From: Escherichia virus TH43
Reading direction: 5' to 3' (one strand)
Sequence record: MT446414.1
Length of the DNA stretch: 64,000 bases
Below the pieces are notes generated by a model, which saw nothing but the letters and a program-made list of their open reading frames with translations, ran no database searches and was not told the origin of the DNA. Both the position numbers and the translations under genes were made by a program. Below are positions 47,455-58,806 of the stretch, piece by piece; positions within the stretch are counted from its first letter, which is position 1; every line of letters starts with the position of its first letter.

Positions 47455-47646
47455 TTAAGGCCTATCCACCCATTTACTATTCCTCACCTTACCACAGTCT
47501 GCACATCTCCATGTACTCTTGTAATAAGCGTGTAATCGTTCATCACCTCTTGATATCCGGATTGGATAGTACTCGTGATTACATTTGAATTGCTTAACTA
47601 GTAACTTAATCTTCCACATAAAGTTGTTCCTCACTCTTAAATCCAC
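47455..47646 (-). CDS. small zinc-finger protein
   Basis: CNHEY...CADCGK Cys/His pattern. Confidence 0.4.
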   Translation of the reverse strand: MDLRVRNNFMWKIKLLVKQFKCNHEYYPIRISRGDERLHAYYKSTWRCADCGKVRNSKWVDRP

Positions 47647-48504: not shown

Positions 48505-48532
48505 TTGACATGTTTTTCCTTTAATATATAGT
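48505..48532 (+). promoter_or_regulatory. sigma70-type promoter (TTGACA-16-TATAGT)
   Basis: consensus -35 and near-consensus -10; ~40 nt upstream of gene at 48571. Confidence 0.6.
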
Positions 48533-56923: not shown

Positions 56924-56928
56924 ATAAG

Positions 56929-56960
56929 AGGCTGCCCTTCGGGGTGGCCTTTGTTGTTTT
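56929..56960 (+). terminator. rho-independent terminator
   Basis: GGCTGCCC-TTCG-GGGTGGCC hairpin plus T-rich tail. Confidence 0.55.
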
Positions 56961-57003: not shown

Positions 57004-57213
57004 ATGAACATTCGTTTAGTTCGTAAACAAGATGGCAGACAGGTTGTGCTAGGTGAGATTGTTTGTGCTGCACACAACCTACTCCCTGAAAAAGATGAAA
57101 CTATCTGGTTTGATGGAGAACAGCGCCGAGTATTATCGGTTGTTAAATCCTTTGAGCCAAAACGCAACAATGAAAAAGCTCTTACCTGTTGGTTTGAGGT
57201 TGACATTACATAA
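57004..57213 (+). CDS. small hypothetical protein
   Basis: same frame as track ORF 56914..57213; RBS AGAGAGG. Confidence 0.45.
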   Translation: MNIRLVRKQDGRQVVLGEIVCAAHNLLPEKDETIWFDGEQRRVLSVVKSFEPKRNNEKALTCWFEVDIT

Positions 57214-57222
57214 GGGGTTGAT

Positions 57223-57474
57223 GTGTTCAATCGTTTATTTGACCGTAAAGGTCGCACTGACATACTGATACCTTCTATCGGTGTGCCAGCTAAGTTCGGT
57301 GAGATACGTGCTGGTGACTTCTTCATGGAATCAGGTCGTCTTCATCTGAAGATCAACCTCGATCACGCTGTTGAAATCCTCAGTGATGATAAGCCAATCA
57401 TCGGCACTTCGGTGTACAGTGCAAACCATACTGTATTTGTTGTCAATGTTCAGATTGAGATTAAATCACCATGA
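57223..57474 (+). CDS. small protein, PGDxF paralog family (GTG start)
   Basis: FGEIRAGDFFM motif. Confidence 0.45.
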   Translation: MFNRLFDRKGRTDILIPSIGVPAKFGEIRAGDFFMESGRLHLKINLDHAVEILSDDKPIIGTSVYSANHTVFVVNVQIEIKSP

Positions 57475-57728
57475 AGACAAACTTCCGAGCAGCAGTTATT
57501 ACGAAAGTAATAGCAGTTGGCGATGTAATGATGCAGGTTCCTCTGAACACTCGTTACATTGCCATTGACCGAATGGGTTATGTGTGGGCTTGGAAGTGGA
57601 AGCCTACTTATAACGAACTGTTCGACGAATACCAGTGCGCTGGACCTTACATGCCAACCTTAATCGGTGTGTATGAAGATGGTCCTTGTCGTACTCCTCA
57701 GTTAATCGAACTACCGGCGTGTGCTTAA
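57471..57728 (+). CDS. hypothetical protein
   Basis: ORF track. Confidence 0.45.
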   Translation: MKTNFRAAVITKVIAVGDVMMQVPLNTRYIAIDRMGYVWAWKWKPTYNELFDEYQCAGPYMPTLIGVYEDGPCRTPQLIELPACA

Positions 57729-57729
57729 T

Positions 57730-57891
57730 ATGATTAAGTGGCTAAAGCGTGTCTTCCATTGTCATGATTGGAAGATTATTAACACCCGTCCTCTGGTCTA
57801 TACAGATTCAGATGGGAACAATGACAAGGGCACACGTTACGTTATTCAGTGTAAGGTGTGTGGTGATGTTAGTCATCGTGATGTAATCTAA
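57730..57891 (+). CDS. small zinc-ribbon protein, tandem paralog A (53 aa)
   Basis: manual translation MIKWLKRVFHCHDW...CKVCG. Confidence 0.4.
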   Translation: MIKWLKRVFHCHDWKIINTRPLVYTDSDGNNDKGTRYVIQCKVCGDVSHRDVI

Positions 57892-57900
57892 GGAATCATT

Positions 57901-58065
57901 ATGATTAAATGGTTCAAACGTCTATTTCATTTCCATGAGTGGGAAGATCTTTCTACTTATGAACTGACGATCACAAATAAACTTACTGACAGAGAGCGAC
58001 AAGGGTTGCGTATCTACTCTCGCTGTAAAGTGTGTGGTCTGCACAAGAAAACAGACCTGATTTAA
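57901..58065 (+). CDS. small zinc-ribbon protein, tandem paralog B (54 aa)
   Basis: manual translation MIKWFKRLFHFHEW...CKVCG. Confidence 0.4.
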   Translation: MIKWFKRLFHFHEWEDLSTYELTITNKLTDRERQGLRIYSRCKVCGLHKKTDLI

Positions 58066-58073
58066 GGGGTGTT

Positions 58074-58283
58074 ATGTTCTTTCGTAAGAAAAAGCCCGAA
58101 GATTCTGGATGTAAACACGAGTGGGTGATCACTGAAAACCTTCAAATCACTCACGCTAAAGACACTCCAGTCGAGAGAAAAGAGTCTCGTGTATCTCGTA
58201 TCTGTAAACGCTGTTTGAAAATAGAACAGCATAAAGTTCCCGGTCATATCGGTCACGATGTGGCCTTGCGTATCTTCAGTTAA
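58074..58283 (+). CDS. small zinc-ribbon protein, tandem paralog C
   Basis: CKHEW...CKRC; same frame as track ORF 58032..58283. Confidence 0.4.
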   Translation: MFFRKKKPEDSGCKHEWVITENLQITHAKDTPVERKESRVSRICKRCLKIEQHKVPGHIGHDVALRIFS

Positions 58284-58317
58284 ACAAACTCAGCATCCTT
58301 AGCTCAATGGAGGGGTT

Positions 58318-58740
58318 TTGAAGATAGAGTTAGAATACCCCTTCGTTAATGACTGGCGATTGGGCTACTTAAGAACAAGCAGAGACGGTAGGAAGCGTGT
58401 TGATTTGTATAATACCGACACGGAGAGGACAACCATTTCTTACGCAAGATATTTAATGTCTTGTCACATAGGCAGGTACCTAACTGAAGACGAGGAGGTT
58501 GATCATATTGACAGAAATAAAACTAATGATGACATATCTAATCTTCAGATACTTTCCATAGAAAATCACAGAAAGAAGTCAACATTAGAAGCAACTACTG
58601 GAAGAACAATGATTTCAGTTGTTTGCTCTTATTGTGGAAGATCTTTTGAAAAAGAAAAGCGAAATGTTAAATATGCAAATTCTTTTTGTAACAGATCATG
58701 TGCAGGTAAGTATAACGGTTTCAAATCTATCGGGGCGTAG
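58318..58740 (+). CDS. HNH homing-endonuclease-like protein
   Basis: EEVDHIDRNKTNDDISNLQILSIENHRKK HNH motif. Confidence 0.55.
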   Translation: MKIELEYPFVNDWRLGYLRTSRDGRKRVDLYNTDTERTTISYARYLMSCHIGRYLTEDEEVDHIDRNKTNDDISNLQILSIENHRKKSTLEATTGRTMISVVCSYCGRSFEKEKRNVKYANSFCNRSCAGKYNGFKSIGA

Positions 58741-58806
58741 TCTAGTGGAACAGGCAGCGAGCTTCTAACTCGCCTTACGAGGGTTCGAATCCTTCCGTCC
58801 CGACCA
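58731..58806 (+). tRNA. tRNA-Arg (anticodon TCT)
   Basis: hand-folded 76 nt cloverleaf: 7 bp acceptor, D-loop with GG, anticodon loop CTTCTAA, T-loop TTCGAAT, encoded CCA. Confidence 0.8.

Follow-up and report, generated by a model that had tools for sequence, protein, structure and literature searches.

Four micro-proteins encoded in a 64,000-nucleotide stretch of Escherichia virus TH43 (MT446414.1; the whole stretch is referred to as the window) very probably belong to one widespread superfamily of tiny, basic proteins whose fold is probably pinned by zinc, which is a statement about structure and family membership. Three of the genes, g1, g2 and g3, lie side by side at 57730-58283, and a divergent fourth, g4, lies elsewhere in the window (Table 1). 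Our overall explanation, on which confidence and doubt are evenly matched, is that the genes encode early accessory binders built on a zinc scaffold, and that they are old paralogues swapped between phages as cassettes; the narrower proposal that the proteins act as accessory host-takeover or counter-defence binders is put forward more tentatively. A sequence-only reading of this DNA had described three tandem zinc-ribbon micro-proteins of 53, 54 and 69 aa directly upstream of an HNH/tRNA locus. The coordinates and sizes were exact in an ORF check, every motif quoted was found in the three sequences, and the HNH gene and the tRNA-Arg gene do lie directly downstream; however, the array is not the whole set of members in the window, as g4 on the opposite strand had been missed.

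Genomic setting and conservation of g1, g2 and g3

A megablast search with positions 57400-58700 of the window returned 47 phage records, all of them phiEco32-like podophages of E. coli or Shigella of ~76-79 kb. Bas88 was the best match, with 98% identity across the shared part, and the matched phages whose taxonomy was read are placed in the Gordonclarkvirinae (Kuravirus or Suseptimavirus); the window represents a Kuravirus/Suseptimavirus-type (phiEco32-like) podophage. A promoter scan of the window located the phage-sigma promoter element TAATGTATA in exact form at four sites only, 5242 and 11727 (+) and 11656 and 21210 (-), and nowhere in the small-gene arm at 47-64 kb that holds g1, g2 and g3, while a consensus scan located near-consensus, strong sigma70-like promoters in that arm at 48505, 51011, 51173 and 51341. 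The element TAATGTATA is that of the phiEco32 phage sigma factor, gp36, and its exact matches are confined to the middle and late gene blocks; this distribution, with none in the early arm, agrees with the published transcription scheme. Papers on phiEco32, 7-11 and SU10 assign CDS 69-125 plus CDS 1-3 to the early class, and describe the early arm as more variable than any other part of the genome, its uncharacterised genes being regarded as likely host-takeover genes (PMC8948821; PMC4281155). With the class assigned from the phiEco32 and SU10 papers, g1, g2 and g3 sit in the early, sigma70-transcribed arm.

The three genes are part of a tightly packed, single-strand block (57004-58283) that is bounded upstream by a terminator-like hairpin. 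The block also holds three small genes at 57004-57728, which match phrog_2458, phrog_22099 and phrog_1972 (function unknown in PHROGs), whose start and stop codons abut or overlap, and which probably share an early transcript with g1, g2 and g3. One base separates the stop codon of the last of them from the ATG of g1, so g1 is probably translationally coupled to this upstream gene; Shine-Dalgarno sequences lie 5-7 nt upstream of g2 (GGAA) and of g3 (GGGG). The encoded proteins read MIKWLKRVFHCHDW...QCKVCG (g1), MIKWFKRLFHFHEW...RCKVCG (g2) and ...GCKHEW...ICKRCL (g3). An Rfam search for an RNA element overlapping the g1-g3 stretch gave the tRNA only.

The genes g1, g2 and g3 are real, conserved and under purifying selection. 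Across seven related phages (Bas88, Bas91, EK010, O18-011, NJ01, ECBP2 and phiEco32), synonymous changes greatly outnumber non-synonymous changes in all three, with pairwise dN/dS of 0.00-0.37 for g1, 0.05 for a second g1 allele type (g1b), 0.00-0.39 for g2 and 0.02-0.27 for g3. Several GenBank records of relatives annotate the three genes as CDSs for hypothetical proteins, and the conservation in related genomes on which the sequence-only reading had staked its claim is thus present, both as dN/dS of 0.00-0.39 and as annotated CDSs. Furthermore, the motif [HC].H.[WYF].{18,42}C..C occurs 4 times in the six-frame ORFs of the window, where 50 shuffles gave an expectation of 0.04, and three of these matches are g1, g2 and g3, the remaining one being g4. 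The notion that the genes are chance ORFs, or that their similarity is a compositional artefact, draws on their very short length, on two of them falling below common ORF cut-offs and on the lack of a Pfam match; it is refuted by dN/dS well below 1, by 135 family representatives (see below) and by the motif enrichment, while the Shine-Dalgarno sequences and the conservation across genera also count against it, and we regard its probability as negligible.

Table 1. Features of the window discussed in the text, in order of position
Feature	Position	Strand	Evidence or remarks
Plus-strand block	1-16 kb	+	window layout
Structural block	16.7-47 kb	-	window layout
Small-gene block (arm holding g1, g2 and g3)	47-64 kb	+	window layout
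g4, 54 aa, divergent fourth member	47455-47619	-	phrog_7696; motif scan; MWKIKLLVKQFKCNHEYY...WRCADCGKVRN
Terminator-like hairpin, upstream bound of gene block	56927-56952	+	11-bp stem, 6 GC pairs, T-rich tail (consensus scan)
Upstream small gene	57004-57213	+	ORF; PHROG hit
Upstream small gene	57223-57474	+	ORF; PHROG hit
Upstream small gene	57471-57728	+	ORF; PHROG hit
g1, 53 aa micro-protein	57730-57891	+	ORF; phrog_8294; H10-x-H12-x-W14 ... C41-x-x-C44-G
g2, 54 aa micro-protein	57901-58065	+	ORF; phrog_8294; H10-x-H12-x-W14 ... C42-x-x-C45-G
g3, 69 aa micro-protein	58074-58283	+	ORF; phrog_13426; C13-x-H15-x-W17 ... C44-x-x-C47
5' remnant of type A tRNA-Arg, 19 nt	58293-58311	+	GCATCCTTAGCTCAATGGA matches tRNA start in HNH-less relatives
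Free-standing HNH homing-endonuclease gene	58318-58740	+	PF13392, 27.5 bits vs cut-off 24.8, E 2.4e-6
tRNA-Arg(UCU), type B	58731-58806	+	ARAGORN; Rfam RF00005, 52.9 bits

Paralogy, superfamily and predicted fold

BLASTP aligned g1 and g2 at 41% identity (E 6e-14), and both belong to phrog_8294, whose HMM matches g1 (E 2.5e-24; residues 1-53 on 1-56 of 56) and g2 (E 1.2e-17) over the full length; on these grounds g1 and g2 are, as judged from sequence, clear paralogues. The g3 protein does not match the phrog_8294 HMM and is a member of phrog_13426 (E 3.1e-37; residues 2-69 on 3-74 of 78), with BLASTP E values of 4e-4 against g2 and 5e-3 against g1. When the window was searched with an HMM of 127 g1/g2-type proteins from which g3 sequences had been excluded, g3 was the top non-member ORF (E 1.7e-4), and the alignment paired its C13/H15/W17 and C44/C47 with the H/H/W and C/C of the family. 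In hhalign, the g3 alignment (A3; homologues from related podophages plus Vequintavirinae) matched the family alignment (A2) with 82% probability (E 1e-5, 39 columns), and from this profile-level match g3 is judged to be a remote member of the superfamily, with an extra, conserved C-terminal helix; its closest kin are found in Vequintavirinae myophages. The alignment proposed as a check by the sequence-only reading thus bore out g1 and g2 and brought in g3 at the profile level, so that the paralogy claimed for all three genes holds in full for the first two and as a remote relationship for the third.

The fourth gene, g4, matches phrog_7696 (E 1e-11) and the family HMM (E 0.0034), on which g1 scores 92 bits and g2 73 bits, and its alignment (A7) matches A2 in hhalign with 94% probability (E 1.1e-7); by profile similarity, all four proteins are members, and a profile comparison of the g3 family with the g4 family gave no direct link (5%). 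A Shine-Dalgarno sequence, GAGGAA, precedes g4, and the gene is kept in essentially all of the related phages examined. A gap separates the structural (- strand) block from the early (+ strand) arm, and g4 lies in it; the gene is the counterpart of the left-most gene in phiEco32-type genomes, which is of the early class according to the SU10 paper (PMC4281155). The phiEco32 homologue of g4 (L029, 253-414) is in another frame than the annotated phi32_1 (296-496), and in Pseudomonas phage TL (L021) a clear family member at 2399-2638 (HMM E 8e-12) is read in another frame than gp08, the 126-aa product annotated there; both records appear to miss or mis-annotate a family member.

Of 1.84 billion cluster representatives (clusters at 50% identity) searched exhaustively with a HMMER profile, 135 matched at E<=1e-3, nearly all of 47-66 aa; word-indexed homologue searches with g1 and g3 gave near-identical proteins only, and a locus search of IMG/VR gave three known phages only. 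Among 126 short members, [H/C]xH followed by CxxC is found in 119 (HxH in 103, CxH in 16), the second histidine being separated from CxxC by 20-38 residues, and two family members are without the histidines. The family consensus, M-x-x-W/L-L-x-x-L-F-(x-G)-H-x-H-x-W-E-I-I ... G-x-R-Y-x-L-Q-C-x-x-C-G-x-V-K-K-R-D-L-I, is laid out as an N-terminal helix, [H/C]-x-H-x-W, a variable hairpin, G-x-R-Y, C-x-x-C-G and a basic tail, with column conservation of H86%/C11%, H98%, W92%, G87%, C99%, C100% and G95%. The superfamily is defined here as proteins of 45-70 aa with [H/C]-x-H-x-[W/Y], 20-38 residues and C-x-x-C, a description that all four window proteins fit. The His/Cys block that the sequence-only reading regarded as shared therefore stands as the conserved [H/C]xH...CxxC core; the cysteine inside the g1 'HCH', however, is not conserved in the family and is unlikely to be a ligand, and the 'CKH' of g3 represents CxH, the less common of the two variants. 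The family is basic (median pI 9.2, 85% above 8; g1-g4 9.0-9.8), and weak cross-hits link phrog_8294, phrog_3036, phrog_7696, phrog_4188 and phrog_13426.

Curated resources do not hold this family. The best Pfam match of g1 reached 14.2 bits against a cut-off of 30.6, g2 and g3 had none, and 127 family members gave scattered sub-threshold matches only; the gathering cut-offs of the zinc-ribbon and zinc-finger families PF25232 (DUF7848), PF19769 (CPxCG_zf), PF13695 and PF24230 were not reached. NCBIfam gave no match for the window proteins or the 127 members, a PDB sequence search found nothing significant for the window proteins, and PADLOC gave no meaningful match that would place them among known defence or anti-defence systems. 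In literature searched for Kuravirus together with zinc, and for zinc-ribbon early or anti-defence proteins of phages, no description of g1-g4 was found. The four proteins are an uncurated variant of a known fold class, and their genes have already been deposited as hypothetical proteins.

Cultured phages with the g1/g2 type are mostly those of the phage group of the window; Pseudomonas phage ventosus, LUZ24-like phages and some cyanophages have it as well. The g3 type also occurs in Vequintavirinae myophages that infect Cronobacter, Pectobacterium, Enterobacter, Serratia and Salmonella. At other loci, family members are embedded in runs of unannotated small ORFs on one strand of phage contigs, among them a nin-like region (with DUF968, HNH and NinG) and regions of large phages that are rich in tRNA genes, and one contig carries two copies 0.5 kb apart; neither a conserved neighbour gene across these contexts nor a fusion to a domain of known function among family members was found. 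A metagenomic protein of 182 aa, P0117, has three [C/H]xHxW...CxxCG modules in a row joined by proline-rich linkers, mirroring the tandem genes within one polypeptide. In one large-phage lineage (two related metagenomic contigs, L023 and L024, 4761-5171), a member begins 166 nt 3' of a tRNA-Asn gene in a tRNA-rich region, and on a third, unrelated contig (L009) a tRNA-Asn gene (1464-1550) lies 2.5 kb upstream of a family member. A functional tie to tRNAs as a general rule was considered and rejected, as a tRNA gene was present in the fetched flanks of 3 of 16 other loci, representing two lineages.

AlphaFold2 modeled g1 (pLDDT 78) with a helix at residues 3-8 and strands at 14-25, 31-41 and 47-52, with C41-x-x-C44 at the turn that joins strands 2 and 3. 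The g3 model, which was built from a mixed alignment and has a low pLDDT (65.5), shows the strand order of g1 plus a helix at 63-68. The zinc ribbon fold group has a three-stranded sheet with a CxxC-type knuckle, a second knuckle that is usually also CxxC, and one tetrahedral zinc. In both models, a CxxC-type knuckle occupies a hairpin turn of a three-stranded antiparallel sheet; however, a second zinc knuckle on the primary beta hairpin is not seen, and the first candidate ligand pair is instead H/C-x-H in the loop from the helix to strand 1. Because this pair has a single spacer residue and lies in the helix-strand 1 loop, the predicted fold is best described as a zinc-ribbon-like variant. 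The nearest solved fold is the zinc ribbon of NrdR, a match that is weak and not significant.

The structure prediction called for by the sequence-only reading gave a modeled helix and three-stranded sheet with CxxC in the strand 2-3 turn; its zinc ribbon is upheld as a predicted, zinc-ribbon-like fold (AlphaFold2 and structure matches), and the zinc itself is something that we infer. With [H/C]-x-H and C-x-x-C as candidate ligands in g1-g4, one zinc ion most likely pins the fold. Against this, H-x-H, which has one spacer residue and lies in the loop leading from helix to strand, is a non-canonical zinc knuckle, and the histidines are absent from two family members.

The gene array beside the HNH gene and tRNA-Arg

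Downstream of g3, the HNH gene matches phrog_14913 (E 4.3e-55) in addition to PF13392; it is context and falls outside the micro-protein family. It is present in Bas91 and O18-011 and absent from Bas88, EK010 and phiEco32, the relatives with which the 19-nt remnant GCATCCTTAGCTCAATGGA was compared. An alignment of six tRNAs showed intact type A tRNA only in the HNH-less genomes (Bas88, EK010 and phiEco32), and the type B tRNA-Arg(UCU), which overlaps the 3' end of the HNH gene, only in the HNH-carrying genomes (the window, Bas91 and O18-011). The loci compared were 58293-58806 of the window, L001 3391-3464, L002 3318-3828 and L005 1890-2419. These sequences suggest that the HNH gene entered the resident tRNA-Arg(UCU) gene as a homing cassette, and the endonuclease seems to carry with it a replacement tRNA that is presumably resistant to cleavage.

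The gene content of the array differs between relatives. All three genes are present in EK010, Bas88, Bas91 and the window, O18-011 and NJ01 have g1 and g3, and phiEco32 has a single gene (the g1b allele) directly 5' of the tRNA, so that g2 is absent from the last three phages. A tblastn search with g1 matched 114 records at 147 places, which means that at least 33 records have a second copy, and g3 was found by tblastn at >=90% identity in 47 records. The identity of g2 to g1 is 42% in this comparison, against up to 48% to unrelated metagenomic members, and the alleles g1a and g1b are 55% identical. Since g2 is no nearer to g1 than to unrelated members, the paralogues are old. The local triplication envisaged by the sequence-only reading is contradicted by this distance, by the placement of g3 in another PHROG and by the varying copy sets; recent tandem duplication was likewise rejected, the divergence of g1 and g2 being equal to that from unrelated family members.

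DNA identity between the window and EK010 is 88-100% in the flanks and falls to 52-63% inside g1 only; because the drop is confined to g1, it marks the replacement of an allelic cassette. A sharp mosaic boundary is seen at 57730-57846 of the window against EK010 (L004), with identity recovering near the 3' end of g1, and g1 occurs as two alleles, an HCHDW type and an HLHDW type, on backgrounds that are otherwise nearly identical. In genomes without g2, the junction reads ...ATCTAAGGGGTGTTATG, the end of g1 being joined to the g3 spacer within ATYTAAGG. The motif AT(C/T)TAAGG, which comprises the last codon, the stop and the start of the Shine-Dalgarno sequence, is common to the 3' ends of g1 and g2, and this junction sequence suggests unequal recombination between the paralogue ends. 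Sites of the gene-end motif are at 57886-57900 and 58060-58073 in the window and at 1655-1670 in L005. Taken together, the one-, two- and three-gene sets in different combinations indicate that the array looks to have been assembled and edited by cassette exchange.

This setting also raises the possibility that g1, g2 and g3 are low-benefit passengers of an HNH/tRNA homing hotspot, spread by recombination. The genes adjoin an HNH gene inserted in a tRNA gene, come and go in gene-sized units with junctions in a repeated gene-end motif, and have relatives with homing endonuclease genes less than 5 kb away at several other family loci; moreover, homing endonucleases beside phage tRNA genes can drive local amplification (PMC13096335). 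However, purifying selection is strong, the full array is also present in Bas88 and EK010, which have no HNH gene, the paralogues are old without recent copies, and the family is conserved across distant phages, all of which make the passenger account improbable.

Proposed role and comparison with known systems

The explanation that we favour, early accessory binders on a zinc scaffold, would operate as follows. The genes g1-g4 would be expressed early in infection, and in each protein a short N-terminal helix would pack on a three-stranded antiparallel sheet, with one zinc pinning the fold; [H/C]-x-H, in the loop that leads into strand 1, would supply two ligands, and the C-x-x-C-G knuckle in the strand 2-3 turn the other two. 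Soon after infection, each paralogue would bind host (or phage) nucleic acid or protein, using the length-variable strand 1-2 hairpin and the basic C-terminal strand as the contact surface. The old paralogues would sit side by side in a recombination-prone spot adjoining a phage tRNA gene, where whole genes or alleles may be swapped, lost or gained between related phages. The small size argues for binders, as the proteins are too small for enzymes, and the basic charge together with the NrdR-like shape suggests binding to nucleic acid or to acidic surfaces. The early position, the dispensability in close relatives, the allelic replacement and the multi-copy state fit takeover or counter-defence factors; it should be noted, however, that no neighbour, fusion, defence-database match or literature report indicates a target, and that the early class rests on the phiEco32 and SU10 papers.

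It is also conceivable, although unlikely, that g1-g4 are regulators which, like the small zinc-finger proteins P2 Ogr and Mu Com, recognise specific nucleic-acid sequences; they would then tune the early or middle transcription or translation of the phage itself and would not be directed against the host. A basic pI, a DNA-binding NrdR zinc ribbon as the nearest solved fold, a location in the early expression arm, and the retention of g4 in essentially all relatives as the first gene at the left end of the genome would agree with such regulators; but g1, g2 and g3 are dispensable in close relatives with the same regulatory layout, the family occurs in unrelated phages with different programmes, and the structural match to NrdR is not significant. 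Growth inhibitors are common among small early phage proteins, and in combination with the conserved hydrophobic/basic N-terminal helix (M-x-x-W/L-L-x-x-L-F) this could mean that the proteins are toxic early peptides whose amphipathic or hydrophobic helix acts on the membrane or the cell division machinery, with the zinc module as a mere scaffold. With ~6-9 residues, however, the helix is too short to span a membrane, g3 has a charged N-terminus without it, and in so small a protein it more probably contributes to the hydrophobic core, which makes a toxic helix very improbable. A further extension of the favoured reading, that of early accessory binders, is speculative and on balance rather unlikely: the family could be a toolkit of interchangeable hairpin-display binders, in which a minimal zinc-pinned scaffold would present a hypervariable strand 1-2 hairpin and the various paralogues and alleles (g1a and g1b, g2, g3, g4) would neutralise different host immunity or takeover targets, with the tRNA/homing-endonuclease spot as a diversification hotspot at which phages exchange such cassettes.

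The early genes of lytic phages are mostly tiny ORFs of unknown function, many of them below gene-calling cut-offs. The present analysis defines one widespread family among them, which spans phages of enterobacteria, pseudomonads and cyanobacteria and comprises at least 135 clusters (50% identity), and the signature, the predicted fold and the cassette-like evolution make up a model that annotators can use. The four paralogues in the BASEL phages Bas86-Bas91, which infect E. coli K-12, together with the natural one-, two- and three-gene variants, form a tractable test set. If the proteins are indeed counter-defence or takeover binders, a class of very small zinc scaffolds would be added to those factors; if they are not, the genes are ordinary accessory genes.

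Among known systems, PHROGs lists phrog_8294, phrog_13426 and phrog_7696 as separate families of small phage proteins of unknown function, whereas here profile comparison and a common ligand pattern unite them in a single superfamily. The N-terminal zinc ribbon of the NrdR repressor (PDB 9fxk, 9fzf and 7p37) is the nearest solved fold, a weak match; the zinc ribbon plus ATP-cone, with significant sequence or structure similarity, that marks NrdR itself was not found here. The zinc ribbons of TFIIS, of the baculovirus LEF-5 C-terminus and of aIF2-beta have the same three-stranded topology as the family, and structure neighbours bearing these names in BFVD were found with TM of 0.6-0.75 and E of 3e-3 to 1.4e-1. 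However, these ribbons differ from the family in the first ligand pair and in the N-terminal helix, there is no significant Pfam match, and the tblastn match to a phage 'baculo_LEF5_C superfamily protein' (E 7) is far from significant.

Phage P2 Ogr/Delta and Mu Com are stand-alone, basic, zinc-binding phage proteins of ~60-70 aa that bind RNA polymerase or mRNA; they have all-Cys ligands and are late-gene activators. The likeness of the present family to them lies in size and stand-alone nature only, since the ligands differ and the genes lie in the early arm, and none of the searches with g1-g4 gave a sequence or profile match to Ogr/Delta or Com. SegB is a homing endonuclease of the GIY-YIG class. 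In T-even phages, it causes recent head-to-tail amplification of accessory loci (PMC13096335). SegB hotspots and the g1-g3 locus have in common a free-standing homing endonuclease beside a phage tRNA and an adjacent accessory copy number that varies; however, the copies at SegB hotspots are recent, whereas here the enzyme is of the HNH type, the paralogues are ancient, and the array also occurs in genomes without the HNH gene.
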